From the IMG/VR virus record IMGVR_UViG_3300010343_000004: a DNA stretch of 64,000 bases. One strand, 5' to 3'. Made by a program: the position numbers and the translations under genes. Shown one piece after another: positions 46,750-62,999 of this stretch. The number at the start of each line of letters is the position of its first letter. The stretch's first letter is position 1. Origin of the DNA: a virus. The notes beneath the pieces were generated by a model that worked only from the letters and a program-made list of their open reading frames with translations, was not told where the DNA came from and did no database searches.

Positions 46750-47001
46750 ATGAAGAGGGCACCCCGGAGCGGCCGGCGTATCGTCAAGCGCTTGCAAGAG
46801 CGTACCTACGAGGGCGTGCCTTACAGGCGCTACTCGGTGCGTTTCAAGACCGTGAGCGGCAAGCGTGTGCGCGTGTACTTCTGGTCGCCAGGTCCCCCGT
46901 GGATCGGTGAAGAGGTCACCCGCATGTTGAACGACCGCGGCGACGTGCCTGCGGGCAGCGACATCATCGTCGAGGAGGCGATGGAGCCAAGCGTGTCATG
47001 A
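46750..47001 (+). CDS. leader-bearing small protein
   Basis: MKRAPRSGRRIVKRL. Confidence 0.65.
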   Translation: MKRAPRSGRRIVKRLQERTYEGVPYRRYSVRFKTVSGKRVRVYFWSPGPPWIGEEVTRMLNDRGDVPAGSDIIVEEAMEPSVS

Positions 47002-47264
47002 GAAAAACTACCTTTGACGTCGTCACCCGGCTGCAAACGGCCGCTCGCCGGCGCGCACCGACCGACGCCGAGCTCAGCGAGAGAGGCCTCGCGGCCCTCG
47101 CGGCTGCCAGAAAGGGTGCCGACCTCTACATCTTCCGCGGGGGAGGCTGGCAGCTTGCCACCCCGGCCGAGCGGGCCCACGCCGAAGAGCTGGCTTTGCA
47201 TAACCCCATAAGTCTCGTAATCTATGCAGCAATGCCAGCGAAAAGGCGCCGCCGCCGGAGATAA
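46998..47264 (+). CDS. leader-bearing small protein
   Basis: MRKTTFDVVTRL. Confidence 0.6.
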   Translation: MRKTTFDVVTRLQTAARRRAPTDAELSERGLAALAAARKGADLYIFRGGGWQLATPAERAHAEELALHNPISLVIYAAMPAKRRRRRR

Positions 47265-47268
47265 GCCC

Positions 47269-47616
47269 ATGCTCGACAACCCCAGTGCCACCGTCGTGGC
47301 AACCCCTGCAGAAGCGGACTCACCACGCTTGTCCGCTTCCACCGTGACCGGTGGAGAAGTCCGCGCGAGGCTGCGTTCACCCGCCGCGGACGCGCCGAAG
47401 CGCGAGCTCTACGCCGTCGCCGTCGAGGTCTTGCTCAAGGCGACCGGCGAGTGGATCCCGGACATCCGCTACACGCACGCCGTCGACCCGCAGGCGGCGA
47501 AGTACGAGATCCTCCGCTGCATCCGGTGGCGCACCGAGAGCTGCCGCGTCGTCGGTGTCTCGCGCGTCATCGGGTACAAGGTGATGGACAAGAAGGGTCT
47601 CATCCTCGCGGTGTGA
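47269..47616 (+). CDS. hypothetical protein
   Basis: Start MLDNPS. Confidence 0.6.
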   Translation: MLDNPSATVVATPAEADSPRLSASTVTGGEVRARLRSPAADAPKRELYAVAVEVLLKATGEWIPDIRYTHAVDPQAAKYEILRCIRWRTESCRVVGVSRVIGYKVMDKKGLILAV

Positions 47617-47618
47617 TG

Positions 47619-48790
47619 GTAATCAACCCCGGCCTAAAGGCCGGAGCTTTGCAGATCAAGTCCATGGCTCACAACCACTTCAACCATGTCCGCGTACGGC
47701 CGGATTACTTCGGCCCGGCTCGCAATTACGCGAGCCGCGTTGACGTCGGCGTCCGCAGTGTGGCCGCACGAGAGGCACGCGAACACATCGCGAGTCTTGC
47801 GGTTGGCCTTCTCGGTGTGACCGCAGACGCGGCACTCTCGAGAAGTGTTTCGCGGGTCGACGTAGCAGATGGGGAGCCCTGCACGCGCGGCCTTGTAGAC
47901 AATCTTCGCCTGAAGGTCGCCGAAGGCCCACGAGTGAAGGACGCGTCGCTGAGACCTGGAAGCCCTTATCCGCGAGCGGATGCCGTCGAGGTTTTCGAGG
48001 GCGATGCCGCGCGAGGTGCGTTCGGCCGTAGCGACAATCTGCTTGCTGATGCAGTGATTCACGTGTGTCGAGAAGCGGCTCTCCTTGATACGCCGTTTGC
48101 GAAGCAGTCGCTTCGCGCTCTTGGTGCCCTTGGACTGGAGTCGTTGTCGGAGCTTGACGGCACGACGCCGGAGAGCGTTCAGGCTCGAGCCACTGAAGTT
48201 GTCACCGTCACTCGTCGTGGCGATGTTGACGATGCCCACGTCGACACCAAGCCAACCGAGGGTCTTCTTCTCCTCGGTGTCCAGCACCTCGACAGAGACG
48301 AAGAGGTAGAAATTCGAGTCTCGGAGAACCAGATCGGTCTCGCCCCGGTCGTAGCCGAGAAGTGTGCGTTGATGCTCGCCGCAGACGAATGGAATCACCT
48401 GACGGCCCGAAAGCGTCCAGAGATTCGCAGTGTCATCCTTCCAGGACAGGATGCGGGCGTCGTACGCGATCGAACCCAGCGGTCGAAAGCTCCGCTTCCT
48501 CTTCTTGTCGAGCTTGTAGGCGTCGGCCACCTTCGCCGTCGCGCGGACGATCATCTGCGAGGACAGATCGGGAAAAGCTGCTCGTGCAGCCACGTAGACG
48601 ATCTTGTGCAAGGCAAACTGCCGGAAGATCTGTTCGTCCCACGCTTTGGTGGAGATCCAGTCGCACGCCTCATTCGCGCGCCGCATCGTCACCGTGAGGG
48701 ACGCCGCCTGCTCGGCGGTCGGCTGAAGCTTCACTTGCACGACAAGCTTCACCACGGTGGTGTATCACACTCAAGACTTGAAGCAACACC
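47619..48790 (-). mobile_element. TnpB-only IS200/IS605-family (IS1341-like) element; ends approximate
   Basis: Right-end hairpin CCGGCCT-AA-AGGCCGG (47629-47644) overlapping the tnpB stop; no tnpA; inserted intergenically on the opposite strand. Confidence 0.75.
47634..48755 (-). CDS. tnpB: RNA-guided endonuclease TnpB
   Basis: RuvC GVDVG / IALENL / ADVNAA; Zn ribbon CRVCG...CLSCG; N-terminal HTH. Confidence 0.95.
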   Translation of the reverse strand: MVKLVVQVKLQPTAEQAASLTVTMRRANEACDWISTKAWDEQIFRQFALHKIVYVAARAAFPDLSSQMIVRATAKVADAYKLDKKRKRSFRPLGSIAYDARILSWKDDTANLWTLSGRQVIPFVCGEHQRTLLGYDRGETDLVLRDSNFYLFVSVEVLDTEEKKTLGWLGVDVGIVNIATTSDGDNFSGSSLNALRRRAVKLRQRLQSKGTKSAKRLLRKRRIKESRFSTHVNHCISKQIVATAERTSRGIALENLDGIRSRIRASRSQRRVLHSWAFGDLQAKIVYKAARAGLPICYVDPRNTSRECRVCGHTEKANRKTRDVFACLSCGHTADADVNAARVIASRAEVIRPYADMVEVVVSHGLDLQSSGL

Positions 48791-48800
48791 CAGAGGTTAG

Positions 48801-49097
48801 ATGAGCTCCGCCCGCCACATCGCGAAGAGGCTCGAGAGCCGCGGGAAGCCGCTGCCGGACGACCTTCGGTCAGTCCTTGGCAGCCTCGCGCACAATCGTG
48901 GATTCTCGAGCAAGGAGCTTGGCGAGTACATCCGCTTTCGAGGCCCCAGCATGGGCATCAGCCTCTCCTTCGAGGGATGGAGCAGCGCTAGCCTGATCCG
49001 CCACCTCGTCGCGGAGGGGCTCATCCAATCGACAACCAAAGGTCACTACTACCCGACCGAAAAGGGGTGGCGCTGGATTGAAGGAGGCACGCGATGA
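48801..49097 (+). CDS. leader-bearing winged-helix-like protein
   Basis: MSSARHIAKRL; LVAEGLIQ...YYPTEKG. Confidence 0.7.
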   Translation: MSSARHIAKRLESRGKPLPDDLRSVLGSLAHNRGFSSKELGEYIRFRGPSMGISLSFEGWSSASLIRHLVAEGLIQSTTKGHYYPTEKGWRWIEGGTR

Positions 49098-49789
49098 TCT
49101 GGTATTGGGTCGGCGGCACAGCCGCAGCAGGGACGCTCGCGTGGTGGATGTGGCCGAGCGAGAAGCCGAGGTCGTCGGTGCAGCACCTCGTGCCGAAGGC
49201 GGACGAGCATCTCTTGCCGACGACGCCGCAGCACAAGCCGGCGCTGCTCACTCGGTTGAAGACCGAGGGAGCCGCCGTGGAGGCCGCGAAGGTTCTTTAC
49301 CGGTCGCTCCGGGCAGGGAGCGCCCCACCGGTGCTCGTCGCTGCGTTCCAGCGCGCGACGGATACCGACCCCGCGAGCCGTGAGCTCATCGGACCGATCC
49401 CGGTCACCGGGATCTACGACCCGAGAACGTCCGCCGCGTTGACGATGTACACGGAAGACCCCGTCCCGGCACATCCGTCGGTCCCCGACACCCCGCACCC
49501 CACGACACCGGCTGCGATCCTGTCGATGGAGATCCCCGGCACTGCGACCTTCGCGGGTTCGAACCTCTACGTGTACCTGCTCGCGCGTGGCAGGGACGGA
49601 AGCAAGGCCCTCGGCGACCTGACGAGGCGCTTCCAGCAGGCCGTCAACTCCGACCCGAAGTTCCCCGGCCCCGCGAACAAGAACGGTCTGCCCGTCCTCA
49701 TCCCCGACCCGCTCAAGGTCGACGGCGACCCCGGTCCGAAGACGATGCGGGCGCTAGGCATCGTCACCCCCACGCAGCTGAGGGTCTGA
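49094..49789 (+). CDS. membrane-anchored protein with degenerate peptidoglycan-binding motifs
   Basis: N-terminal TM; RRFQQAVN...LKVDGDPGPKTMRAL. Confidence 0.7.
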   Translation: MIWYWVGGTAAAGTLAWWMWPSEKPRSSVQHLVPKADEHLLPTTPQHKPALLTRLKTEGAAVEAAKVLYRSLRAGSAPPVLVAAFQRATDTDPASRELIGPIPVTGIYDPRTSAALTMYTEDPVPAHPSVPDTPHPTTPAAILSMEIPGTATFAGSNLYVYLLARGRDGSKALGDLTRRFQQAVNSDPKFPGPANKNGLPVLIPDPLKVDGDPGPKTMRALGIVTPTQLRV

Positions 49790-49796
49790 GATCGCC

Positions 49797-50072
49797 ATGA
49801 AGCGTGCACCGAAGAGCGGGGTCAACGTCGCCAGGCGCCTCCAGAAGCGCGCCAGACGACAGCCGACCGGTGTGGAGGCCCTCGGCATCATCCGGTGGAT
49901 GCGGCGGTGGCACCGCGAATTCGCGCGACCCGCGGACCGGCGAGTTGAACGCGGGCGGCGATGGTCGAGGCGTGGGACCGAGAGAACGCGGGCGGCGCGG
50001 CGACCCTCCGCCCGGACCCGCGTCGCGTGGGATCTCGCTGTGAAGGTCGCCGAGCAAGTCCGAGGAAGGTAG
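49797..50072 (+). CDS. leader-bearing small protein
   Basis: MKRAPKSGVNVARRL. Confidence 0.65.
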   Translation: MKRAPKSGVNVARRLQKRARRQPTGVEALGIIRWMRRWHREFARPADRRVERGRRWSRRGTERTRAARRPSARTRVAWDLAVKVAEQVRGR

Positions 50073-50081
50073 GTGAGAGTC

Positions 50082-50204
50082 ATGGCAAAGAAGAGCGCGA
50101 AGTCCGTCACGAAGAAGCTCTCGGAGAAGAGCAGCAGCAAGAAGTTCATGAAGGGGGGCAAGCAGTACGAGCATGTCTCTTCCTACGTGAGGAGATCGAG
50201 GTAG
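50082..50204 (+). CDS. leader-bearing 40-aa basic peptide (not in track)
   Basis: MAKKSAKSVTKKL. Confidence 0.6.
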   Translation: MAKKSAKSVTKKLSEKSSSKKFMKGGKQYEHVSSYVRRSR

Positions 50205-50206
50205 CG

Positions 50207-50341
50207 ATGAGCCCGCGGACCGTCACCATCCCGGCGAGCGTCGCCCTCTTCGGCTTAGGCTGGATGTGGGTCGGCTTCTGGCCGACGTTGGTGCTCACGG
50301 TCATCGCGCCAGCCCTCATCGAAGAGTGGGGCAATCCATGA
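50207..50341 (+). CDS. small membrane protein, paralogue of 51342-51551
   Basis: LFGLGWMWVGFWPTLVLTV. Confidence 0.65.
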   Translation: MSPRTVTIPASVALFGLGWMWVGFWPTLVLTVIAPALIEEWGNP

Positions 50342-50649
50342 GCAGTGCACACAGTGTTGTCAGCAAGCTCGCCTCGAAGGCCGCGAGCTTCTTCACCCGC
50401 CACGGCGACACTTGGCTGGCCCGCGTCACGTACGCTAACGGCAAGAACTACGACTGGGGCATCAAGCAGATCGGCGAGAGGTTCATCGTGGAGGCCAAGA
50501 GCGGCACGAGCATCCTCCAGGTGAAGGAGAGATTCTATACGCTCTCGAAGGCGCAGAAGTTCGCCGCGAGGTTCATCGAGAGGGCAGATGGTGAGCACCT
50601 CTTGAAGGCCGCCGTCGACAAGAACAAGTTCAGCTTCGTCAAGGGCTGA
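50338..50649 (+). CDS. leader-bearing small protein
   Basis: MSSAHSVVSKL. Confidence 0.7.
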   Translation: MSSAHSVVSKLASKAASFFTRHGDTWLARVTYANGKNYDWGIKQIGERFIVEAKSGTSILQVKERFYTLSKAQKFAARFIERADGEHLLKAAVDKNKFSFVKG

Positions 50650-50663
50650 GGGGGCAAGACGAG

Positions 50664-50864
50664 ATGGCATCCGCAAAGACCGTCGCACACCACCTCACCT
50701 ACGGGGGCAAGCGGGACTACCCGAAGATCGACATCTTCCACGACGGACAGTACGCCGGGACCACGACCTGGGCGCGCACATGCAAGGAAGCCAGAAAGCA
50801 GTGGCTGAAGGCTCACCCGGACGCGTACGCGAGCAAGACCACCGCCAGGTTCCAGCGGCGATAG
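50664..50864 (+). CDS. leader-bearing small protein
   Basis: MASAKTVAHHL. Confidence 0.7.
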   Translation: MASAKTVAHHLTYGGKRDYPKIDIFHDGQYAGTTTWARTCKEARKQWLKAHPDAYASKTTARFQRR

Positions 50865-50972
50865 AAGAAAGAGAGAAGAAACCATGAACCTTATCCAAGA
50901 CCCCCAACTCTCATTCGAGGATGCGCTTCGCGGCTCTGGTATCCGCGGCCACCTCGCAGGAACGAGGTAGCC

Positions 50973-51320
50973 GTGGCATCCGGAAAGAACGTCGCAGACC
51001 GCCTGAAGAACGCACGCAGCAAGAGCGCCAAGCTCCTCGCGCGCGGTGCGAAGATCGAGGCGCGGCTCGTCGCCCCGAAGACGAAGCTTGACCTCGTCGT
51101 CGCGCAGATGAACGACATCGCGCTCCGCAAGGAGAAGCTCCGGCAGAAGGGCGGCCCGGGCACGCGCGAGAAGATCGCGAAGCTCTCCACCCGCGAGGCT
51201 CGGCTCTCCACGCGCCGCGCGAAGCTCGAGAAGCGGGTGGCACCGTACCTCGCCCGCCTCGAGAAGATTCGCGGGGGGCTCGAGAAGCACACCGCTACCA
51301 TCCAGCGTAACGGAGGCTAG
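50973..51320 (+). CDS. leader-bearing basic coiled-coil protein
   Basis: MASGKNVADRL. Confidence 0.7.
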   Translation: MASGKNVADRLKNARSKSAKLLARGAKIEARLVAPKTKLDLVVAQMNDIALRKEKLRQKGGPGTREKIAKLSTREARLSTRRAKLEKRVAPYLARLEKIRGGLEKHTATIQRNGG

Positions 51321-51341
51321 GCGGCGAAGGCTTCGGTCATC

Positions 51342-51551
51342 ATGGACATTCCGACGACAGAAGCGACGTGGGAACTCGACCCCACGACCCGTACCGTGGT
51401 CCTCTTCGGCCTTGGCTGGGCGTGGATCGGCTTCTGGCCGTCGCTCTTTTTGACCGTCGTCGGCCCCGGGATCACCGCGAGGTACTGGAAAGGGAGCGAG
51501 TCCTCCCCCGCGTTCCAGCAGCGTGTACTCGAACTCTCGAGGGCGGCGTGA
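51342..51551 (+). CDS. small membrane protein, paralogue of 50207-50341
   Basis: LFGLGWAWIGFWPSLFLTV. Confidence 0.65.
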   Translation: MDIPTTEATWELDPTTRTVVLFGLGWAWIGFWPSLFLTVVGPGITARYWKGSESSPAFQQRVLELSRAA

Positions 51552-51627
51552 ATAACTCCGGCTCCCTGCGCGTCCTATGGAGTGGCCCGAACCAGTCGGG
51601 TCGCCACGTCCACTCCAGGAGTCTCCC

Positions 51628-52101
51628 ATGAGCAGTTCTCGCGACGTCGCGGCGCGTCTCGCCGCGCGGACAAGCAAGGACCCGATGAGCGCTCAGGCCT
51701 TCGCTACGCTCCTTTCCTCTCTCGCTCCGAAGGAGCGTCAGACGATCGTCAAGATCGAGGAGCCATGGTCCGGCCAGAGTTCCACCATCGTCCGCGTCTA
51801 CTTCATCAACCTGCCTGCCGGCATCGGCGGCGCGGGCGGTGGCGCAGAAGAGTTCAACAACCGTGCGCTCTTCTCGGTCAGTGGATTCCCGCGTGACCCG
51901 TCTCTGGCGGCCGCGAAGGTGAAGATCGAGCAGTCGCAGAGCGTCTTTCAACGGAGTCACCGAACAGGTGTCCCATCGGTCCCTTTCCGCGCGAAGAGCG
52001 GACCGCCTGGCGTTATCGCGCGCTACCTCGCCGAATACATGGCCGATGTCGTGGTGCACGTCCCGCCGCACTTTACCCACACCGGCAAGCTGGAGGTCTG
52101 A
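51628..52101 (+). CDS. leader-bearing protein
   Basis: MSSSRDVAARL. Confidence 0.7.
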   Translation: MSSSRDVAARLAARTSKDPMSAQAFATLLSSLAPKERQTIVKIEEPWSGQSSTIVRVYFINLPAGIGGAGGGAEEFNNRALFSVSGFPRDPSLAAAKVKIEQSQSVFQRSHRTGVPSVPFRAKSGPPGVIARYLAEYMADVVVHVPPHFTHTGKLEV

Positions 52102-52102
52102 G

Positions 52103-52375
52103 ATGATGCGTCGAAGCGCGAAGAGAATTGCCCATTCACTCGCTCGCCGTCCGGGCGTGGGCATCGGCAAGCTCCGGAGCATGCGAGGTGGAGCCTATTA
52201 CACGGTCGTCATCCCGTACGTGACGGTGGGCCGAACCGCATGGCATCCCACGGATCCCAGCTTTGCACCCATCACCCGGGGCGCGTTCAAGACGGCGAAG
52301 CTCGCCCGCGCGTGGGCCGTCAAGCATCTCGGACAGCACGCGCAGTTTGGCCTCCGAAAGTTCGAAGGAAGCTGA
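52103..52375 (+). CDS. leader-bearing small protein
   Basis: MMRRSAKRIAHSL. Confidence 0.7.
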   Translation: MMRRSAKRIAHSLARRPGVGIGKLRSMRGGAYYTVVIPYVTVGRTAWHPTDPSFAPITRGAFKTAKLARAWAVKHLGQHAQFGLRKFEGS

Positions 52376-52384
52376 GAAAAGACC

Positions 52385-52687
52385 ATGAGCGCGAATAGAG
52401 TCACGAACAAGCTCGCGCGCCGAAGGCGGGGCGCGTCCGAGCGGCTTTTCATCGGCGTCTACCCGACCGGGATCGTCTACGCTGACCGCTCGCGCGAGAA
52501 GCACGGTGACTACGCCCGCTGCGGGTTTCTTCCGTTCAGCACGCTCGTGCTGGAACTCAAGTCCGACTGTCCGAAGGCGCTCCGGGCGCTCATCGAGAAG
52601 GATGCCGCGCGCCTGCAGGCCCGACGCGGCGAGCAGTACCAGGTCTCGGCGAGCGGCCAGACCATCACCCTCGGACACGGACGATGA
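52385..52687 (+). CDS. leader-bearing small protein
   Basis: MSANRVTNKL; FIGVYPTGIVYADR...HGDY. Confidence 0.75.
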   Translation: MSANRVTNKLARRRRGASERLFIGVYPTGIVYADRSREKHGDYARCGFLPFSTLVLELKSDCPKALRALIEKDAARLQARRGEQYQVSASGQTITLGHGR

Positions 52688-53016
52688 CTGCGCGCGTCGT
52701 CGCAAAGAAGCTCGAGGACCGCCTCTTCCGCTACGCAGACGGAGTGATGACGGAGCGGCAATGGATCGAGCGGTACGCCGATCGACTCGAAGAGGCGCGC
52801 ACCATCGTGGAGGACTTCTACAACCGGCGGAAGTTTAGCAGCCTCGAAGGACGAGCACAGGACGAATACATGAAGAGGCTCCACGCGAAAGCGGGCAAGC
52901 CTGTCTACCGTGCGCATCGCCGTGGTGGGAGCTCCTTCCAGGAAGTCAGCAAGAAGAGCTTCGACTGGGCCGCCCACACCCTCGGCCTCCCGGTAACGTT
53001 CAAGGAGAGGTCATGA
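52684..53016 (+). CDS. leader-bearing small protein
   Basis: MTARVVAKKL. Confidence 0.75.
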   Translation: MTARVVAKKLEDRLFRYADGVMTERQWIERYADRLEEARTIVEDFYNRRKFSSLEGRAQDEYMKRLHAKAGKPVYRAHRRGGSSFQEVSKKSFDWAAHTLGLPVTFKERS

Positions 53017-53381
53017 GCGCGAAGAGAGTCACGAGCAAGCTCGCGAGTCGGTCACGCCACGTTGCGGGTCGGTCACCACGCCACGCGAAGACGAGGGCGG
53101 TCACCATCGTCGGCCGGAGGTGGTTCGACCGCGCCAACGGCAACACGTACTACTCGTCCGAGATCTACGTGAACGGCAAGTTTGTCCACAAGATCCCTTT
53201 CGCCTACGGCTACGGCTCGATGTACGAGCAGGACGCCGCGGAGTGGCTGATCGATCACGGGTACATCAAGGCCGAGAAGTACGCGAGCGGCGGGTACCCT
53301 CCGCTCTGGCAGCTCGCCGAGAAGCTGGGCTTTCACAAGGAGACGCCGGTCAGCGACGTCGCCCGGAAGAAGGACCTCTGA
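53013..53381 (+). CDS. leader-bearing small protein
   Basis: MSAKRVTSKL; GRRWFD..NGNTY...YGYG. Confidence 0.75.
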   Translation: MSAKRVTSKLASRSRHVAGRSPRHAKTRAVTIVGRRWFDRANGNTYYSSEIYVNGKFVHKIPFAYGYGSMYEQDAAEWLIDHGYIKAEKYASGGYPPLWQLAEKLGFHKETPVSDVARKKDL

Positions 53382-53656
53382 TGGCGTCTTCCAAGCGAGT
53401 CACGAAGAAGCTCTCTGCGCGCAAGAAGCATGCAGCTTCTGAGCGCGCTTGGAACGAGCGAGCTGTCAGGATCCACGACGCGGGGGCGGAACTCGTCGCG
53501 GACGCGATGGAGCTTCAGCACGGACGCGAGAATCTCCAGGTCGACCGTGAGCACGGGCGGGAGTGGGTCACGTGCAAGCGATGCGGCAGACAGTTCGCGA
53601 TCCACGGCAACCAGGCCGAGGTCGTGTCCGAGGGAGACGGCTACTGCGGGCGATAA
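53381..53656 (+). CDS. leader-bearing zinc-ribbon protein
   Basis: MASSKRVTKKL; CKRCG. Confidence 0.7.
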   Translation: MASSKRVTKKLSARKKHAASERAWNERAVRIHDAGAELVADAMELQHGRENLQVDREHGREWVTCKRCGRQFAIHGNQAEVVSEGDGYCGR

Positions 53657-55980: not shown

Positions 55981-56319
55981 ATGGCGAAAAGCGCGAAGAA
56001 GATCTCGGAGAAGCTGTCCACCCGCGGCACGAAGCGGTTCTCGGCCTACTGGCCAACCCTCGGCTCGGACAGGCTGCCCGAGGTAGACGACGCGGTCTTC
56101 GTCTCGAGGACGCTCGACACGTCGAGCGGCCGCGAGTTCTACGAGGCGAGGCTCACCCCCTGGAAGACCAACGTCTCGCACGAACCCAAGGTCCACGGCT
56201 GGCTCGGGGAGACGAACAACAAGAGCCGCACCGCGGTGGGCAAGGGCGTCGTCACGGCCATCGATCCGGACCGCGACGACGTGATCCGGTTCCGGTTCGT
56301 GAAGGGAGCAGCGTCGTGA
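55981..56319 (+). CDS. leader-bearing protein
   Basis: MAKSAKKISEKL. Confidence 0.75.
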   Translation: MAKSAKKISEKLSTRGTKRFSAYWPTLGSDRLPEVDDAVFVSRTLDTSSGREFYEARLTPWKTNVSHEPKVHGWLGETNNKSRTAVGKGVVTAIDPDRDDVIRFRFVKGAAS

Positions 56320-56383
56320 GGCGCATTCCGCAGGACGAAACCGCCTGCCGCACCCGTCGCATGTGAACGCCATCGTCCTCCTT

Positions 56384-56517
56384 CGCGCGCATGTCCACTA
56401 ATCCGTCTCTCGCTTGGCATACCCCGTGCGAGGTCGGGGCATCTCGGCCTCACGCACCAGCCGTTCGACCATGCCACTGCGGGTCTCGCCGCAACGCGTC
56501 GCCATCTCGTCGAGGCG
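56384..56517. repeat. 134-bp direct repeat, copy 1
   Basis: Matches 57579-57712 with 3 mismatches. Confidence 0.9.
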
Positions 56518-56613
56518 GGCAATCGCGTCGGGGGAGAGCGAGACGTGTACGAGGGGGCGCTTGCGCTTGACCAAGCCGGCGGACCGTCTGCGGCTGGCAT
56601 CGTCAATAATCAT
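56398..56613 (-). CDS. CopG/RHH regulator
   Basis: VHVSLSPDAIARLDEMA...ETRSGMVERLVRE. Confidence 0.75.
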   Translation of the reverse strand: MIIDDASRRRSAGLVKRKRPLVHVSLSPDAIARLDEMATRCGETRSGMVERLVREAEMPRPRTGYAKRETD

Positions 56614-56978
56614 AGCTGCCTCCAACCGTGCCCCATAGTGCGCTGCCAGCCAGCAGCCAACGCTGCAGCCTCGATCTTGTCGGCAAGAGTCTGCGCCGAC
56701 CTAGGGTATCGCTCGCCTGCTCCGTCGGCCATATCACGCAGTTGCTCGGTGAGCCGGTAAAGCATATCGTCGACCACCATCGACGCCTTGGGGAAGACCA
56801 TTCGACCGGCCTCGAGCCTGGGTAGGTCTGTCTCAAAATACCAACGCTCGCCGTCCCACGGCTCCGGGTCGCTCGCCTGCTCGCTGACAAGTTCCGCCAT
56901 TGGAACGAGCGCCCATTCAGCGTGGGCCTTTTCGCCCCGAGTCAGTGTGATCGAAAACATTCGACCACCTTGCTCCAT
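56610..56978 (-). CDS. hypothetical protein (alternative start 56960)
   Basis: Coupled to the RHH start. Confidence 0.6.
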   Translation of the reverse strand: MEQGGRMFSITLTRGEKAHAEWALVPMAELVSEQASDPEPWDGERWYFETDLPRLEAGRMVFPKASMVVDDMLYRLTEQLRDMADGAGERYPRSAQTLADKIEAAALAAGWQRTMGHGWRQL

Positions 56979-57070
56979 CCGGCCCTATTTGCATCGTCCA
57001 CATGGGTTGACGAATGCCCCCCATCATTCCAGAGCACGCCAACCCTCAAGGTGTCGATGGTCGTCCTCAT
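56942..57070 (-). CDS. small protein, probably translated from a leaderless mRNA
   Basis: ATG lies 7 nt after TACAAT. Confidence 0.5.
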   Translation of the reverse strand: MRTTIDTLRVGVLWNDGGHSSTHVDDANRAGWSKVVECFRSH

Positions 57071-57077
57071 GCCCATC

Positions 57078-57105
57078 ATTGTAGCCACACTGCGGCTACA
57101 GTCAA
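57078..57105 (-). promoter_or_regulatory. sigma70 promoter with operator palindrome, copy 1
   Basis: TTGACT-16 nt-TACAAT; TGTAGCC-N7-GGCTACA. Confidence 0.8.
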
Positions 57106-57284
57106 GAGGTAGCCGAAACTTTTTTCTCGAGCGCCACACGCACAGCCTCGCGCCCTGGACATTCACCCGCGCGCATGGTGACACGACCATCCGGCCAATG
57201 GTAGGTCAGCGACCCGGTAACGCGAGCCCCGGAGCGCATCAGGCCGCAGGTCTTACACGTCTCGTGGTACCAAGAATGTTTCAT
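57102..57284 (-). CDS. small Cys/His protein
   Basis: Coupled start; CKTCG. Confidence 0.55.
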   Translation of the reverse strand: MKHSWYHETCKTCGLMRSGARVTGSLTYHWPDGRVTMRAGECPGREAVRVALEKKVSATS

Positions 57285-57502
57285 ATGAACGAGCCGATAC
57301 GGACGAGTTGCGACTTCTGGAAGCGTCCGACTTCAGGGTCGCCGACCTCAGGTCTTGTAAGCCGAACATGCACCCATTCATGGCCTACGTGCCACACAAG
57401 TCCGAGTCCAACACCCAACACGCGGACATGGTCGAGGGGGCGAAAGCCGCGGGCATTGGGCGCACACGAGAGCGGCGCCTCGGCTCGGTTGTTTTTGCTC
57501 AT
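57281..57502 (-). CDS. small protein, probably translated from a leaderless mRNA
   Basis: ATG lies 7 nt after TACAAT. Confidence 0.55.
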   Translation of the reverse strand: MSKNNRAEAPLSCAPNARGFRPLDHVRVLGVGLGLVWHVGHEWVHVRLTRPEVGDPEVGRFQKSQLVRIGSFI

Positions 57503-57509
57503 GTCCGTC

Positions 57510-57537
57510 ATTGTAGCCGCAGTGTGGCTACAGTCAA
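57510..57537 (-). promoter_or_regulatory. sigma70 promoter with operator palindrome, copy 2
   Basis: TTGACT-16 nt-TACAAT; 7-nt core is the reverse complement of copy 1. Confidence 0.8.
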
Positions 57538-57578
57538 GTGGTAGCCGAAACTTTTTCTCGACCGCTGCACTTCTCTGG

Positions 57579-57712
57579 CGCGCGCATGTCCACTAATCCG
57601 TCTCTCGCTTGGCATACCCCGTGCGAGGTCGGGGCATCTCGGCCTCACGCACCAGCCGTTCGACCATGCCACTGCGGGTCTCGTCGCAACGCGTCGCCAT
57701 GTGGTCGAGGCG
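57579..57712. repeat. 134-bp direct repeat, copy 2
   Basis: Matches 56384-56517. Confidence 0.9.
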
Positions 57713-57739
57713 AGCAGTTGAGGCTACGGCGTTGCGCAT
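57593..57739 (-). pseudogene. truncated copy of the RHH regulator lacking its beta-strand
   Basis: MRNAVASTARLDHMATRCDETRSGMVERLVRE... Confidence 0.5.
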
Positions 57740-57756
57740 GTACCGAGTAAAGGAAT

Positions 57757-57984
57757 TCACGACTCGCTCCCCTGCCCCAAAAGCGCACGCGAAATAGCCC
57801 GCTCCTCGTCCGTCGGCGGCTCGCCAGATTGCTCCCGATGCCGCTCGCACATGGTGTCTCCGTACTCGCCGTTCGGATCGACGCCAACCGCGAAGCCGAA
57901 CAGGTGGGCCATCATCGCAACCCTGTCGGGGCTTGGCCCGTACGCGATCGCCGCACAGATGGGGCACGCTTCGGCTTCCTTCAT
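57757..57984 (-). CDS. small Cys/His protein
   Basis: CPIC...CERH; coupled start. Confidence 0.55.
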   Translation of the reverse strand: MKEAEACPICAAIAYGPSPDRVAMMAHLFGFAVGVDPNGEYGDTMCERHREQSGEPPTDEERAISRALLGQGSES

Positions 57985-58148
57985 TTTGCGAGATCCTCCC
58001 GCTTCATCTTCTTCAAGGCACTTCTCAGCCTCGCCTTGGAGTGGTCGCTCTGCAAGGAGTCGATCCCGCACTCGAGCGCGCGCTTGACCGTGCGCGGGTC
58101 TAGCTGCGCCTCGAGTGCGATGCGCATGATTGTCGGTCGGTCTACCAT
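57981..58148 (-). CDS. small HTH protein
   Basis: IMRIALEAQLDPRTVKRALE. Confidence 0.65.
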   Translation of the reverse strand: MVDRPTIMRIALEAQLDPRTVKRALECGIDSLQSDHSKARLRSALKKMKREDLAK

Positions 58149-58171
58149 TCGTTGAGCTACGAGGGAAAATA

Positions 58172-58195
58172 ACAACTTGCTGCAAGTTGTGTCAA
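58172..58195 (-). promoter_or_regulatory. promoter -35 box with perfect operator palindrome
   Basis: TTGACA (58190-58195, minus) followed by ACAACTTGC-T-GCAAGTTGT, then TATTTT. Confidence 0.7.
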
Positions 58196-58453
58196 ACTGT
58201 CGGGCCTCGGCCCATCAAAAATAATCCGATCCCCACACACTCAGAAAGGAGGCGGAAGGTAGCTCCCCCCCCGCTGCCGCTGCCGCCCTGCCCCGCCCCC
58301 CCATGGCCTCGAACATCTTCGGCAGAACGGCAGAACGGCTTGAGCACGCAGCCTGCAAGCGTGGTAGCCTTCCCCTTGACAATCCCCGTGCAACGCGCCC
58401 TCCTCGGAGAAAGCATTGCAACCCCCCCGACCCCACGAGGCGTGATCTACCCC

Positions 58454-58786
58454 ATGAGCAGCGCGAAGAAGGTGAAGAGGAAGCTCGAGACGCGCTCGGA
58501 CACGGCGTCGGTCGACTTCGCCGCCAGGCAGATGGGGGTCCCGCGCATCATGGCCGAGGTGCTCATGGACCTCCGCCGCTCGCCTGAGCGTAGGCGTCTG
58601 CCGCCTCCCGGACACTCCCTCGTGTACGACGGCGAAGGCTACGTGCCGCTCCGCAAGACCGGCTACATCGCCTGGCACCAAACCGAGCCGGGGATGTCCT
58701 CTTTCTCCGACCACTACGTACTCACCGACCAGGGCCGCGTGCTCCTAGCGAAGCTCGGGACGGCGGGCCTCACGGGAAAGACCTGA
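58454..58786 (+). CDS. leader-bearing protein
   Basis: MSSAKKVKRKL. Confidence 0.75.
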   Translation: MSSAKKVKRKLETRSDTASVDFAARQMGVPRIMAEVLMDLRRSPERRRLPPPGHSLVYDGEGYVPLRKTGYIAWHQTEPGMSSFSDHYVLTDQGRVLLAKLGTAGLTGKT

Positions 58787-59163
58787 TGCGCTCCTCCGGA
58801 CGGCGCACCGCGAAGACGGTGGCGAAGAAGCTCGCGACACGCGGGACGAAGAAGACGAAGGCCGCTGCGAAGAAGCGTGGTCTCAAGATGGTCTACTGCG
58901 CGCCCGAGAGCTTCGCGATGACGGGTCTGCCGCGCGGCGAGAAGATCTCGCTCGACTGGGACGAGCCCGCGCAAGAGTGGAAGGCGACGGTCGGCGGCAT
59001 CATCCACCGCATGCCGACGTTCTTTCTGTCGCCGAAGACCGCCAAGAAAGAACCGAAACGCTTCGCCATGGAGGCGCTCTCGCACCTCGAACGAGTCATG
59101 ATGGCGGGACCTCGCCCCGCGCACGAGCAGAAGGGACCTCTCGCCATCGGAGTGCGGACATGA
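58786..59163 (+). CDS. leader-bearing protein
   Basis: MRSSGRRTAKTVAKKL. Confidence 0.75.
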   Translation: MRSSGRRTAKTVAKKLATRGTKKTKAAAKKRGLKMVYCAPESFAMTGLPRGEKISLDWDEPAQEWKATVGGIIHRMPTFFLSPKTAKKEPKRFAMEALSHLERVMMAGPRPAHEQKGPLAIGVRT

Positions 59164-59420
59164 GCAGGTCGGCCAAGAAGATCTCGAAGAAGCTCTCCTC
59201 AAGAAAGAGGGGCAAGCGTGGCTCGCGGCGGACCATCCTCCCGCCAGCGATGCACATGACGTTCGAGCCGGTACCCTCCACGCAGGTTGAGCTCGGCGCG
59301 CCGCCCACTTTGCGGAGCGCGGGGCATCCGCTCGCGTCGTGGGATCCAGCGGCGCCCACGCTCCGCCACCCCTTCGCGAACTGGCAACCCAGCGCGCCGA
59401 CGCTCCGACCGAGCCAGTAG
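59160..59420 (+). CDS. leader-bearing protein with PTLR repeats
   Basis: MSRSAKKISKKL; APPTLRS / AAPTLRH / SAPTLRP. Confidence 0.7.
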   Translation: MSRSAKKISKKLSSRKRGKRGSRRTILPPAMHMTFEPVPSTQVELGAPPTLRSAGHPLASWDPAAPTLRHPFANWQPSAPTLRPSQ

Positions 59421-59423
59421 ACG

Positions 59424-59573
59424 ATGCCCACGAGCCGCCATCTCGCGAAGAAGCTCGCCGCGCGCCGCCGTTACGCAGCCATCGGCGTCACCGCTTCCGA
59501 GCTCCGCCGACGTCTGCGTCAGGGCGAGAGCGTCCTCGACGTCGCGCAATACCCTGGAGACAAACCACGATGA
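59424..59573 (+). CDS. leader-bearing 49-aa protein (not in track)
   Basis: MPTSRHLAKKL. Confidence 0.65.
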   Translation: MPTSRHLAKKLAARRRYAAIGVTASELRRRLRQGESVLDVAQYPGDKPR

Positions 59574-60067
59574 AGAAGTCCTGGGCACGCAGGATCGCCG
59601 ACGACCTCGAGAGGGGCCGCCACTCCGCCGGCAAGCACGCCATCGCGCGTAAGCTCGAGAAGCGGAGCGGCAAGAAGCCTGCTGGATCGAAGGGGCTCAT
59701 CTTTCTCAACCCGGCGAGCAAGGACTACGCGAAGCACCGCTACATCCTCTGGTTCGACGCGCATGCGCCGACGTACTTCGTCGTGTGGGCGGACAGCCTC
59801 CAAGACGCCATCGACGAAGTGGCCGACGAGTGGATGGAGAAGAACGCGCCCGGCTGGTTCATGGACGAGCCGATCGAGGAGAACTACAAGGAGGCGCTCG
59901 AAGAGGGGATGGACGAGGGGCAAGCGCAGGAGCACGCCACCGTCGACATGACCCCCGTCGGCGGCTACGGCCGCTACATCTCCTCGGAGGACTGGGGCAT
60001 CGAGGCCGAGGACCCGTCAAGGGAACGGATCCTCGAGCTCCAAGAAAGCCTCAAGGGGAGATACTGA
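59570..60067 (+). CDS. acidic protein with two tandem leaders
   Basis: WARRIADDL...GKHAIARKL. Confidence 0.75.
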   Translation: MKKSWARRIADDLERGRHSAGKHAIARKLEKRSGKKPAGSKGLIFLNPASKDYAKHRYILWFDAHAPTYFVVWADSLQDAIDEVADEWMEKNAPGWFMDEPIEENYKEALEEGMDEGQAQEHATVDMTPVGGYGRYISSEDWGIEAEDPSRERILELQESLKGRY

Positions 60068-60312
60068 TGGCGAGCGCGAGACAAGTCGCAGGCCGGCTGG
60101 GCAAGACGCGAGTGGCGAGCGCGCGCCGCGAGGCCGTGAAGGATCTCCTCACGAGGCCGTCCCCGCCAGAAGGAGCGTTCATCGCTGGGCCATGGGGGTT
60201 CGGGCTGACGAGCGAGCACGCCGAGCGCTTGCTCCGCAAGTGGAAGAAGCTCCTCACCATCGCGGGCCTGACGAGCCGCGAGATCGCCGCCGACATGGCG
60301 GGATGGGGCTGA
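60067..60312 (+). CDS. leader-bearing protein
   Basis: MASARQVAGRL. Confidence 0.75.
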   Translation: MASARQVAGRLGKTRVASARREAVKDLLTRPSPPEGAFIAGPWGFGLTSEHAERLLRKWKKLLTIAGLTSREIAADMAGWG

Positions 60313-60315
60313 TCC

Positions 60316-60582
60316 ATGAGCGCGAAACATGTGGCAGAGCGGCTTGAAAGCAGCGCGTCTCGCGAAGGGTTCGGCTCGATGGCCGAAGTGATCGCGCACC
60401 TGCGCGCCGGGCGGCCGCTCTACTACAAGGCGCCGCTGTCCTATCGCGCTGTCCGCATCGACAACGTTGCGCGTCCGTTCGGCAAGAACCGCATCTACAT
60501 CCGCGCGGACCGCCTTGATCGAGACAGCGACCCGTTTACGGCGGACGCCGGGCACCTCGACCGATTCCGTCGTGCCCCATGA
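60316..60582 (+). CDS. leader-bearing protein
   Basis: MSAKHVAERL. Confidence 0.75.
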   Translation: MSAKHVAERLESSASREGFGSMAEVIAHLRAGRPLYYKAPLSYRAVRIDNVARPFGKNRIYIRADRLDRDSDPFTADAGHLDRFRRAP

Positions 60583-60989
60583 AGACTGCACGCATCGTCC
60601 TGAAGAAGCTGGCGCGTCGCCACGAAGACGCAGTCGTGCGCGATCCGGCGCTCCTGCCCGCGAAGCTTTCCGCTCGCCTAGCGCGGGACCTCGGGAGGGA
60701 GCTCGGAGGTGGATGGACCGTCGAGGTGACAGCCAGCAGCACCTCCATGCCGAGGAGCTGGGACTTCGCGAACCTGACGGACCTCCTCGTGACCGCGCCT
60801 GGCGGGAGACCGTCGCGCGTGTCCATCCGCGTCAACGTCGTCGTCGGCACCGCGTACCCGCCAACGCTCTCCGAGGCCTCTGCGAACGCCGCCCTTGACG
60901 GCATGACCTTGACCACGAGGGGCGCCGCGCCGGACGAGGCGATCCGGACGCTGATCGGCGAAGTCGCCGAGCAGCTCGGCGGGAGATGA
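60579..60989 (+). CDS. leader-bearing protein
   Basis: MKTARIVLKKL. Confidence 0.75.
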   Translation: MKTARIVLKKLARRHEDAVVRDPALLPAKLSARLARDLGRELGGGWTVEVTASSTSMPRSWDFANLTDLLVTAPGGRPSRVSIRVNVVVGTAYPPTLSEASANAALDGMTLTTRGAAPDEAIRTLIGEVAEQLGGR

Positions 60990-61004
60990 CGGAGAGGGAG
61001 AACC

Positions 61005-61346
61005 ATGAGGACCGCACGCGCCATCGCATCGAAGCTCGAGAGACGGCCCTGGCAAGGCACCGACTGGATCGAGAAGCAGGCCAACTTGCTTCACAACCGG
61101 CTCGCTTCCGTCATCCTGTACGGCGTCGAGGGAGGCGCCGGTAACTCCCGCGGCAACGCGCCCGTGCCGCGCAGCAAGGCAGACGAGTACATCGCGGAGG
61201 CGGGGGCCGTTCTCCGCAACTGGGAGGCGCAGCACGCTCCGACCGCGAGCGCCCGCCGATGGTTCGAATACAAGGTGAAGGACCTGCGGCGTAAGCTCGA
61301 GGAAGCCGAAGCCGTACGCGCGGGCCATCAAGCTCCGAAGCTCTGA
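61005..61346 (+). CDS. leader-bearing protein
   Basis: MRTARAIASKL. Confidence 0.75.
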   Translation: MRTARAIASKLERRPWQGTDWIEKQANLLHNRLASVILYGVEGGAGNSRGNAPVPRSKADEYIAEAGAVLRNWEAQHAPTASARRWFEYKVKDLRRKLEEAEAVRAGHQAPKL

Positions 61347-61356
61347 CTGAGGAGAG

Positions 61357-61707
61357 ATGAGCATGTCCGCGAAGAGCGTCACCGAAAGGCTTCAAAGGGC
61401 GAACAGACCCGAGTCGTGGGACACGACGCCGCGCTACGCGCCCGCGGAGGTTATGACCCTGCGGGGCGTGCGCCCAGTGCTCCGCTCGGCCTTCCACCCG
61501 CCGGAGAGCGAGGAAGCTCGCCGTAAGAGCGGGATCCCCATCGTGGCTAGCTACGGTGTCCTCGAGCTCGTGACGGACGCCGGCTCCCGCTACTACGGTG
61601 TGGACCGCGCCTACATCAACTCGGAGCTCCGCATGGTCGTCATCGGTGTCAACAAGCGCGACGAGGTCGTCTCAAAGTGGCCGGTCGTGCCGAGGCGGAT
61701 GCGGTAG
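61357..61707 (+). CDS. leader-bearing protein
   Basis: MSMSAKSVTERL. Confidence 0.75.
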   Translation: MSMSAKSVTERLQRANRPESWDTTPRYAPAEVMTLRGVRPVLRSAFHPPESEEARRKSGIPIVASYGVLELVTDAGSRYYGVDRAYINSELRMVVIGVNKRDEVVSKWPVVPRRMR

Positions 61708-61758
61708 GACACGCGGGGTCGCACGAGCGCGAGGGACTGAGAAGAAGGAGAGAAGACC

Positions 61759-62088
61759 ATGTCATCGGCGGGCAGCGTTGCGAGCAAGTTGGAGAAGCGT
61801 CATGTCGGGCGGAGGTTCGTCCCACGCAAGCGTCTCGGCTTGATGATGTCTTCGTGGGGCGGCGACTTCTCCTACGGGCGCGGCACCGGCGCCGTCGGCG
61901 CCGTCGCGAGCTTCTACCATTCAGACAAGCCGTACCCCGACAAGGGCATCGTTCGGGAAGCTCTCCAAGAGGTGGAGCGCCTCGAACCGCTCGCCATGCA
62001 CGGCGCGCACGGCTGGACTCCGAAAGACGCACGCGAGCTTCGGAACATCGCCGGCGGCCTCAAGTATTACCTCAAGGCCGACTACTGA
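61759..62088 (+). CDS. leader-bearing protein
   Basis: MSSAGSVASKL. Confidence 0.75.
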   Translation: MSSAGSVASKLEKRHVGRRFVPRKRLGLMMSSWGGDFSYGRGTGAVGAVASFYHSDKPYPDKGIVREALQEVERLEPLAMHGAHGWTPKDARELRNIAGGLKYYLKADY

Positions 62089-62114
62089 GGCTCAAAAGAC
62101 CGAGGAGAAAGACC

Positions 62115-62357
62115 ATGTCTGCGAAGAGCGTCACGAAGAAACTCGCGAAGAAACGCGCCAAGAAGAAGCACAAGCCCGGAGCGGCAGTCGGGAGAGCGAT
62201 TGACAAGAAGTTCGCCCAGGCCCGAAAGATCAAAAAGCAGATCGAGACGCTCGAGAAGCGGCACACGAAGCTCATCGATCAGGCGTACAAGCTCTCCGAG
62301 AAGCACAAGCGAAGCCGGCCATCCGCTCCTTTCATCGGACCTCTCCTTCCTGAATGA
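62115..62357 (+). CDS. leader-bearing Lys-rich protein
   Basis: MSAKSVTKKL. Confidence 0.75.
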   Translation: MSAKSVTKKLAKKRAKKKHKPGAAVGRAIDKKFAQARKIKKQIETLEKRHTKLIDQAYKLSEKHKRSRPSAPFIGPLLPE

Positions 62358-62370
62358 AGTAGGTCTACGC

Positions 62371-62766
62371 GTGTTCGAGCTCCATTACCGCTCTTTCGTC
62401 CCCGTCGAGGACCTCCTCGAGGACGAGTGCTCCGTGCACCGCGCGAGTGCCGGAGTAGGCAAGCGATTCTGGCTGCTCTGGTGGAACTCGAAACGCGAAA
62501 CCGACGGTGTGCTCGAGGTCTTCTGCGTGCCGATCATCCCGAGCGGCTCTTACTCGGAGAACGGGCCTGGCGGACGGAGCTGGGGATGCAACCGCGCCGG
62601 CGTCGGACGCTGGATGATTGGCCCATCGGTCAACGTGCTGGACGACGAGGGCGCGCATCAAGTCGTCGCGGGACATGCGCCGACGAGCATCTCGCTCTGG
62701 CACAAGACACCGCTCCTCACCGGAGTCCCGGAAGACGAACCTTGGGCGAGAGGACAGCAGCCGTGA
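62371..62766 (+). CDS. hypothetical protein (no leader)
   Basis: GTG start MFELHY; stop overlaps the next start. Confidence 0.55.
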   Translation: MFELHYRSFVPVEDLLEDECSVHRASAGVGKRFWLLWWNSKRETDGVLEVFCVPIIPSGSYSENGPGGRSWGCNRAGVGRWMIGPSVNVLDDEGAHQVVAGHAPTSISLWHKTPLLTGVPEDEPWARGQQP

Positions 62767-62999
62767 GCGCACGAAACATCGCAGGCAGGCTCGAGGGTCA
62801 GAAGAAAGCCGGCAAGCAGAAGTACGACGTCTTCCGCACGTCCTGGGGAGAGAAGAGGCTCGTGTCCGGACCCCACGCTTGGCCAGTTGCATGGCGAGAA
62901 GCGGCGAAGCTCAACAAGCAAGCGCGCGAGGACTTCAAGGAAGGTCGGATCATGTACGACGTGCCCGAGTACGTCATCGAGGCGAGGAGCGGACGGTGA
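62763..62999 (+). CDS. leader-bearing protein
   Basis: GTG start MSARNIAGRL. Confidence 0.7.
   Translation: MSARNIAGRLEGQKKAGKQKYDVFRTSWGEKRLVSGPHAWPVAWREAAKLNKQAREDFKEGRIMYDVPEYVIEARSGR

Follow-up and report, generated by a model that had tools for sequence, protein, structure and literature searches.

The internal proteins found in T-even phages are diverse, and the only feature common to them is a capsid-targeting sequence (PMC3012670). This tag loads the T4 internal proteins into the scaffolding core, and some of the proteins then act against host defence (PMC3012670). The present analysis concerns a 64,000-nt stretch of DNA (hereafter the window) from IMG/VR record IMGVR_UViG_3300010343_000004, whose parent contig is 81 kb long, and within it an array of small genes at 46750-62999, most of which encode proteins that begin with one short N-terminal peptide, the leader. 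The leader is real; it is under selection as a peptide, behaves as a module, and is confined to one clade and to one arm of the genome. The virus itself is uncultured, and its known occurrences are all in soil metagenomes.

The T4 internal proteins lie embedded in the packaged DNA, with lysines on the DNA phosphates, and their tag ends in a prohead-protease site (L/I-x-E). The proteins of the array resemble them in that a short N-terminal peptide is the only common feature of diverse small proteins, in the rapid turnover of gene content between strains, and in the small size and basic character of the cargo (here a median of 101 aa, with an isoelectric point (pI) above 9.3 in 28 of 30). In contrast to the T4 tag, the leader is basic, shows no sequence likeness to its counterpart and has no evident cleavage site, a Glu directly following the Leu in only about a third of cases. 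T4 encodes a handful of tagged proteins per genome, as opposed to about 40 here, and the virus considered here has a protein-primed family-B DNA polymerase, with no HK97 capsid, portal, terminase or T4-type protease detected in protein family scans. A preliminary description of this DNA, made from its letters, had drawn the parallel with T4; it stands as a functional analogy only, and a T4-type capsid-targeting sequence was rejected by sequence as well as by genome context, where no T4-type head genes were detected.

The leader follows the consensus [ST]-[AS]-[KR]-x-[VI]-[ATVS]-x-[KR]-L-[EAS]-x-[RK], which at 12 residues is three longer than the version first proposed, and is usually followed by a Lys/Arg-rich stretch. 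A loose regular expression gave 37 matches in the six frames of the window, 27 of them on the + strand at 46768-62766 and each 1-7 codons past a start codon. With a 12-column score matrix, 30 sites reached at least 16 bits among about 106,000 positions, all on the + strand and all directly after a start codon (1-7 residues from the Met to the motif); 29 of these 30 strong leader genes fall within 46750-62999, and codon-shuffled copies of the window yielded 0-1 matches at 14 bits or more. Degenerate leaders at 37972, 46998 and 55163 bring the count to 33 leader genes in the window, in line with the more than 30 first claimed, and seven further ones lie just beyond the window end in an identical contig of another sample, L006 (related contigs and contig parts from soil metagenomes carry the labels L001-L008 and L224-L226). 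Leader genes in the approximately 81-kb virus number about 40, by estimate roughly a third of all its genes.

Two outliers had been reported outside the array, and both are real. The gene at 29009-29191 (+; MASAKHVVHKL, 60 aa, pI 11.4) scores 26 bits in the matrix, two codons after its ATG, and the gene at 37972-38241 (+; MKRVVHKLASRRRR, pI 12.0), with a DUF3175-like body (Pfam DUF3175 at E 1e-3, under the curated cut-off), has an orthologue in L003 that starts MSAKSVAQNL and matches DUF3175 at E 4e-5. Among the 38 + strand genes at 46.5-63 kb, 31 carry the leader, four encode an N-terminal transmembrane helix and three have neither. As the preliminary description had stated, the membrane proteins at 49094, 50207, 51342 and 53673 are without the leader, and so are the early-arm genes (0 of about 25; Fisher p = 1.7e-11). 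Across 79 leaders tallied, the motif is strictly N-terminal, lying 1-11 residues from the Met. A Shine-Dalgarno core is found upstream of 21 of the 30 starts, against a background of 18%, and the remaining starts mostly abut or overlap the stop codon of the preceding gene; this placement indicates that the leader is translated and that the start precedes the motif, rather than lying downstream of it as the preliminary description had envisaged as a refutation.

Conservation of the leader is a property of the protein rather than of the DNA, as had been proposed from the synonymous variation of its codons. At residues common to two leaders, codons are shared at a frequency of 0.50, as against 0.47 expected from codon usage in the bodies; because codon identity is no higher than codon usage predicts, it is the peptide that is conserved and not the DNA. 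The 36 nt of leader DNA have a median identity of 50%, with at least 80% in only 2 of 435 pairs. Serine is encoded by AGC in 14 cases, AGT in two and TCN in eight, and Leu9, invariant in 30 of 30 leaders in the window, uses four different codons. Orthologues retain the motif in relatives at 62-65% marker-protein identity, with changes at variable positions only.

The conserved positions have a consistent geometry. Plotted as a helical wheel, positions 2, 5, 6 and 9 occupy one sector at 40-140 degrees, the single face that had been predicted for them, with basic positions 3, 8 and 12 flanking it and variable positions 4, 7 and 11 opposite, at 240-300 degrees; Ser or Thr at position 1 fits a helix cap. 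A helix contacting its partner through a single face would be expected to show such a contrast between a conserved and a variable side, and we infer that the leader is helical and docks onto a shared partner.

Three other roles for such a peptide were tried and rejected. A "downstream box" or other translation-initiation function does not fit, because the motif offset varies (1-11 codons) and amino acids, not bases, are conserved. A Tat or Sec signal is excluded by the lack of a hydrophobic stretch after the basic motif, and a transglutaminase acceptor tag by the interchange of Lys and Arg and by leaders that have no Lys.

Beyond the leader, the bodies of the tagged proteins share no visible similarity, as first reported: no pair reaches blastp E < 0.03 (best E 0.03). 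The tagged proteins are 40-180 aa long, and their basic character exceeds that of small early proteins, only 6 of 15 of which have a pI above 9.3 (p = 2e-4); two, at 54154 and 59570, are acidic overall. The dN/dS ratios of orthologue pairs with related contigs are 0.10-0.50, and the proteins are therefore real and constrained. Pfam searches with 30 tagged proteins of the window and 62 of its relatives, and PHROGs searches with ten window proteins, returned only phrog_6246, DUF7717, a sub-threshold DUF3175 and coiled-coil noise, with no Pfam match for any of the 30 strong leader proteins of the window, so that, besides the 53013 protein, the tagged bodies matching outside families are DUF3175-like (sub-threshold) and DUF7717. 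Nor do the tagged proteins form a divergent paralogous family, since their bodies show no such similarity and 95 tagged proteins on eight related contigs fall into 68 body families.

The clearest view of the modular layout comes from the protein encoded at 53013-53381 (+; MSAKRVTSKL, 122 aa), for which there is a family match and an AlphaFold2 (AF2) model. Its body (residues 25-122), a domain widespread among phages, matches phrog_6246, of function unknown, and 1437 representative clusters (E <= 1e-3). In most homologues among the matches listed, the domain begins a few residues from the N-terminus or follows other extensions, and the leader is present in none of the 16 homologues whose sequences were read. 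In the AF2 model, built from 101 sequences, residues 29-122 are folded (block-mean pLDDT 96-98 from residue 31) and residues 1-28 are unstructured (pLDDT 63-70); the layout is therefore tag, flexible basic linker, domain. These comparisons indicate that the leader was added to at least one existing domain. A Foldseek search of the model against the PDB gave nothing at E <= 1e-3, and the ESM Atlas gave no usable match for the leader segment.

Relatives of the virus were found with the 334-aa protein encoded at 45543, the 231-aa membrane protein encoded at 49094 and one leader protein. Their marker proteins are 62-86% identical to those of the window, and L006-L008 are 99.5-100% identical to it in DNA. 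The relatives have the same layout and the same leader, including more degenerate versions, with 79 matrix matches in 124 kb of late arms and no leader in the replication arm of L001 (22.5 kb). The closest divergent relative (L001, L003 and L226; ENA contig_35387) occupies at least 71-135 kb of a 193-kb contig, compared with the 81-kb contig of the window, and integration, a larger genome or a chimeric assembly are possible reasons for that size. Searches of IMG/VR with the polymerase and the 45543 protein, and of species genomes by polymerase alignment, found no relatives. In IMG/VR (17 loci), degenerate DNA patterns for the leader matched nothing but isolated sites by chance, most of them internal, and no arrays. 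The same was true among the matches listed from JGI metagenomes (at least 118 loci), both results being uninformative on how far the tag has spread.

Array content differs even between genomes that are 99.5% identical, which fits arms-race cargo. In the near-identical contig L008, the leader gene at 61357-61707 (+; MSMSAKSVTERL, 116 aa) is replaced by two other tagged genes; the left junction of this cassette swap lies just past the upstream stop codon, and the right one at codons 2-3 of the next leader, that of 61759-62088 (+; MSSAGSVASKL, 109 aa). Furthermore, two gene pairs with different bodies (52375/53003 and 54614/55965) share 83% identical DNA over 40-48 nt across the ribosome-binding site, start and leader, the second pair joining the genes at 54630-55172 (+; MVRSAKKVSHRL, 180 aa) and 55981-56319 (+; MAKSAKKISEKL, 112 aa, with both motif and matrix support). 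The shared 5' DNA and the swap junction indicate that recombination moves the 5' module now and then; it is not what keeps the motif conserved, because of the codon-identity result. Around the second pair, a duplication (54498-54653 / 55896-56004) takes in an acidic stretch of coding sequence rich in Asp and Glu, together with the gene junction and the leader that follows. The junction segments proper (54614-54653 / 55965-56004) are 83% identical over 40 nt, in agreement with a separate note on a relic duplication by the author of the preliminary description.

We consider it likely that the leader is a modular docking or address tag. An invariant hydrophobic stripe at a free N-terminus, joined to unrelated bodies that are unable to all pack on it, points to one external partner. 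In the proposed mechanism, the tag would consist of a Ser/Thr helix cap, a three-turn amphipathic helix whose small hydrophobic stripe (A2, V/I5, A/T6, L9) is flanked by basic K/R3, K/R8 and R12, and a flexible, usually Lys/Arg-rich linker, and it would be attached to many unrelated small, mostly basic proteins. Its conserved face would probably bind one common viral receptor, and the tagged proteins would most likely be loaded into the particle along with the DNA and so reach the next host, in parallel with the T4 capsid-targeting sequence. The preliminary description had likewise read the leader as an address tag; the modular N-terminal tag selected as protein is borne out by the codons, the 53013 body, the helical periodicity and the 68 families, and the destinations offered for it (virion core, inner membrane or a viral compartment) are suggestions, the points that fit packaging being circumstantial. 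Among them, virion packaging is a tentative choice made by analogy. It is put first because the tagged genes are co-directional and interleaved with presumed structural and entry genes, because one tagged gene of that block, 37972, belongs to the syntenic core, and because small, basic cargo suits proteins packed with DNA like the T4 internal proteins.

A candidate for the receptor is the conserved 334-aa protein encoded at 45543-46547 (+). In four relatives, those with contigs on which the genes after it can be seen, it sits directly upstream of the array, and a model of the protein consists of an alpha/beta domain and, after it, a helix about 100 residues long. That position, in relatives reaching that far, and the long helix of the model were the reasons for choosing this protein for co-folding. 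Residues 1-290, co-folded with the 40-aa protein encoded at 50082, gave a score of 0.00, a result from a single pair without controls that counts neither way. Foldseek found nothing for the 45543 model in BFVD at E <= 1e-3, and the ESM Atlas gave no usable match for the protein.

Several points weigh against loading into a virion by such a tag. Scans of the late proteins with Pfam (all) and PHROGs (about half) recognised no T4-type prohead protease, scaffold, portal or HK97 capsid, although very divergent versions could escape them. A search for RNA runs containing this virus, which would have borne on late expression, found none, and in many phages the small accessory genes that are hypervariable belong to the early set. 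The leader is unlike the T4 capsid-targeting sequence and is without an evident protease site, AF2 does not give the free leader as a helix in the 53013 model, and forty packaged species in one virion would be unusual. The only match on this point in the scans of the late proteins was a sub-threshold transglutaminase-like one, and no terminase was detected.

Three further described systems invite comparison. The peptides that load cargo into microcompartments and encapsulins are terminal amphipathic helices that, with a flexible linker, dock unrelated cargo on one shell protein, a layout that fits the 53013 model and the helical periodicity of the leader. Examined for a helix plus linker, the leader has a conservation periodicity that fits a helix, and AF2 gives a flexible 28-residue extension with no helix in the free state. 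Unlike the leader, these peptides are not basic, serve a few enzymes of one pathway and belong to loci with a recognisable shell protein; no Pfam family of such shell proteins (BMC-H/T/P or encapsulin) was found among about 90 proteins scanned. Payloads of extracellular contractile injection systems, such as the Photorhabdus virulence cassettes, carry a disordered or short N-terminal signal that directs unrelated effectors into a phage-like particle. Those signals differ from the leader in being about 50 residues long and poorly conserved, and the particles are tail-like; no contractile-tail genes were seen here. The precursors of modified peptides, for instance the prochlorosins, also occur as many genes per genome with a conserved N-terminal leader and a hypervariable remainder. 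In contrast, their leaders are 60-80 residues long, their cores about 20, and an enzyme reads the leader to modify the core, whereas here the bodies are 40-180 aa long, a modelled body folds, and selection is purifying. A precursor family of ribosomally synthesised and post-translationally modified peptides (RiPPs) was rejected on the length of the bodies, on the confident fold of one of them, and on Pfam scans of the array proteins, which found no RiPP modifying enzyme family in the arrays.

Another destination for the tagged proteins would be a membrane. The leader would then be a cationic amphipathic helix lying on anionic lipid, of the host inner membrane or of an internal virion membrane, and the tagged proteins would be peripheral counterparts of the transmembrane proteins of the array. 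Such localisation to a membrane or assembly site is unlikely, even though nearly all products of the array begin with one or the other, the leader in 31 and a transmembrane helix in four of the seven others, and have lipoprotein-like, transmembrane and peptidoglycan-binding neighbours. The first 18 residues have a net charge that averages +3.9 and a Heliquest-type lipid-binding discriminant of about 1.5, but this high value comes from charge alone. The hydrophobic face offers only Ala, Val/Ile, Ala/Thr and Leu, and a mean hydrophobicity of about 0 with a hydrophobic moment of 0.39 over 12 residues is weak for an anchor. The strict Ser/Thr cap and the invariant Leu are more typical of peptide-in-groove recognition, and an internal membrane in the virus is itself conjecture.

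The basic character of the leader raises the question of whether it and the Lys/Arg-rich linker bind DNA or RNA directly, without a receptor. The tagged proteins would then be a DNA-associated family (condensing, histone-like or genome-riding) that is packaged passively. The tagged proteins and their bodies are basic (median body pI near 9.8), the linkers are rich in Lys and Arg, and homologues of the 53013 domain often have other Lys/Arg-rich N-terminal tails. Cellular control DNA, 462 kb obtained for a different purpose, contains no true N-terminal leader; nor does the early arm, for which the preliminary description had asked for this comparison. The ten matrix matches in this DNA, the only look-alikes, all fall inside TnpB (10 of 80 TnpB relatives), in an internal basic segment KGTxSAKRxLKKLSGR that we take to be a nucleic-acid-contacting part of the protein; the likeness may be chance or shared basic-helix chemistry. 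However, binding by charge needs neither an invariant Leu, nor a conserved Val/Ile, nor a fixed N-terminal place; Lys and Arg interchange freely and the hydrophobic positions do not, and two of the tagged proteins (54154 and 59570) are acidic. A nucleic-acid-binding arm is thus distinctly unlikely.

The strictly N-terminal place of the motif, 1-11 residues from the Met, would also suit a free N-terminus read by a host machine, either a ClpX-type N-terminal degron, of which lambda O and Dps are examples, or another hub, so that all the tagged proteins would share one lifetime or one contact in the host. Leaders such as TARIV and TARAI loosely resemble what we take to be ClpX N-motif-1 (polar-T/hydrophobic-hydrophobic-basic-hydrophobic), but most leaders are polar where the ClpX motif needs a hydrophobic residue, position 4 being variable. 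The host is only weakly hinted at (Chloroflexota, via TnpB), and we know of no precedent for dozens of viral proteins with one degron, all of which makes a turnover or host-factor signal quite improbable.

Finally, it is very improbable that the leader has no function of its own and is a recombination linker for cassette exchange or the remnant of one fast-diverging paralogous family, for although the two gene pairs with like 5' DNA, the swap junction at leader codons 2-3 and the paralogues of the 50973 body could be read in that way, the idea is largely refuted by the codon-identity test, which rules out recombination linkage or gene conversion as the main cause, by the motif kept on diverged orthologues, and by dissimilar bodies, one of which (53013) belongs to a large family without the leader.

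The array, all on the + strand apart from two interruptions, opens with a leader gene at 46750-47001 (MKRAPRSGRRIVKRL, 83 aa; dN/dS 0.15 with its L002 orthologue) and the degenerate 46998-47264 (MRKTTFDVVTRLQ, 88 aa), which has orthologues in L002, L003 and L004. A TnpB gene (IS200/IS605 OrfB-type) is inserted next on the opposite strand (47634-48755); its relatives, at most 55% identical, come mostly from Chloroflexota metagenome-assembled genomes, a weak hint that Chloroflexota may be the host. Motif and score matrix both identify 48801-49097 (MSSARHIAKRLESR, 98 aa) and 49797-50072 (MKRAPKSGVNVARRL, 91 aa), which flank the conserved 231-aa membrane protein at 49094-49789, with its N-terminal transmembrane helix, that served as a marker for finding relatives. 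The leader gene at 50082-50204 (MAKKSAKSVTKKL, 40 aa), the partner chain in the co-fold, encodes barely more than the tag and a basic tail. It precedes a small transmembrane protein without leader at 50207-50341, a paralogue, by DNA repeat, of another at 51342-51551; the two are 72% identical in DNA over 83 nt (50239-50321 / 51395-51477), and a protein of this type (LFGLGWxWxGFWP) occurs in the array of every relative (L002 13010, L003 16317, L224 10768, L225 871).

Between these paralogues lie 50338-50649 (MSSAHSVVSKL, 103 aa; motif and matrix), 50664-50864 (MASAKTVAHHL, 66 aa; L003 orthologue) and 50973-51320 (SGKNVADRL after a GTG start, 115 aa), a coiled-coil-like protein identified by the motif, whose body family is the only one with paralogues. 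Motif and matrix agree again on 51628-52101 (MSSSRDVAARL, 157 aa), 52103-52375 (MMRRSAKRIAHSL, 90 aa), 52684-53016 (MTARVVAKKL, 110 aa) and, past the 53013 gene, 53381-53656 (MASSKRVTKKL, 91 aa). In 52385-52687 (MSANRVTNKL, 100 aa), the L225 orthologue keeps the motif and differs at variable positions. After the leaderless 53673-54143, with an N-terminal transmembrane helix, comes a weak leader gene at 54154-54630 (MPSSSDIVDRL, 158 aa), which has an acidic tail, a pI of 4.2 and an L002 orthologue. A degenerate leader gene, 55163-55867 (MPTTFKRIQHVLESR, 234 aa), lies between the two members of the second pair described above.

The array is then split by an island at 56380-58200, mostly on the - strand, in which small genes of ribbon-helix-helix-like and helix-turn-helix-like type occur. 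The island also contains a direct repeat of 138 bp (56384-56521 / 57579-57716, 97% identical) and three matches to sigma-70-like promoters, each on the - strand (58195-58166, 57537-57510 and 57105-57078). It resumes at 58454-58786 (MSSAKKVKRKL, 110 aa; dN/dS 0.19 against L002), followed by 58786-59163 (MRSSGRRTAKTVAKKL, 125 aa) and 59160-59420 (MSRSAKKISKKL, 86 aa), both identified by the motif and included in the dN/dS set. The gene at 59424-59573 (MPTSRHLAKKL, 49 aa) has a 108-bp in-frame deletion directly after the leader relative to strain L008, and 59570-60067 (MKKSWARRIADDL, 165 aa) carries a leader variant recognised by the score matrix. Low dN/dS ratios were obtained for 60316-60582 (MSAKHVAERL, 88 aa; 0.10) and 61005-61346 (MRTARAIASKL, 113 aa; 0.11). 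Motif and matrix support 60067-60312 (MASARQVAGRL, 81 aa), 60579-60989 (MKTARIVLKKL, 136 aa) and the very basic 62115-62357 (MSAKSVTKKL, 80 aa), and the matrix finds the last gene, 62763-62999 (SARNIAGRL after a GTG start, 78 aa). Beyond the window end, L006 encodes at 11238-16256 two Gly/Ala-rich proteins of 433 and 536 aa with the common start M[SG]FDLG.F, and after them a 319-aa protein with a precomputed Thaumatin (PF00314) match and an N-terminal hydrophobic segment, with leader genes in between.

The rest of the window, which is virus-like with 65% G+C, has a left arm (about 1-24 kb, - strand) encoding the protein-primed family-B DNA polymerase, a ribonucleotide reductase, a ParB-like protein and a sulfotransferase fusion, and a right arm (+ strand) with peptidoglycan-binding and membrane proteins and many proteins without any match. 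The large subunit of the reductase (7290-10592, -), which has an ATP-cone domain, is interrupted by a LAGLIDADG-type intein. Within a glycosyltransferase/sulfotransferase ORF at 5974-7731 lies, at 7047 (-), a peptide weakly similar to the leader (MAHAKNVAHRLAML, 10 bits). It is in frame, near residue 227 and directly after an internal Met, and may be accidental or point to a boundary between domains. Midway in the presumed structural block, 33318-34790 (+) encodes a 490-aa low-complexity protein, probably disordered, that has Pro/Gly/His repeats of the MPGHPG type and GYGPPQ repeats, a run of DRDRDH and a C-terminal third that is acidic. Around the tagged 37972 (36792-39173, +; L002 2694-4214, L004 3052-4528), a small basic gene adjoins that of a beta-rich "GGWSQSG...WSVEGN" protein; the small gene is DUF3175-like in the window and L003, and in L002 and L004 another small basic protein (...HKGALH...) is encoded there instead, the L004 version with the leader and the L002 version with no clear one. 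Upstream is encoded a 391-aa protein with a lipoprotein-type signal (LVSCIGC).

At its fullest, the reading offered here would be that soil viruses of a lineage so far unrecognised, whose polymerase is protein-primed, use a basic helical tag of 12 residues, unlike any described targeting peptide, to load about forty interchangeable effectors into the virion for delivery with the genome, with at least 68 cargo families exchanged as cassettes; taken as a whole, it is doubtful. The one-tag, many-cargo logic is already known from T4, and what would be new is that another tag serves it, on about a third of the genes, in a virus lineage that is unrelated and lacks other annotation. Should the leader serve for sorting or packaging, some forty proteins in each genome, and dozens of families in the clade, would become one functional class in a barely annotated virus group. 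The logic of T4 would then have arisen independently, with different chemistry, in an unrelated lineage, and the leader, portable and very short, would allow foreign proteins to be loaded into particles of a new type. Whatever the destination, the 12-residue peptide could serve as a handle on the receptor and the assembly pathway of this group of viruses.

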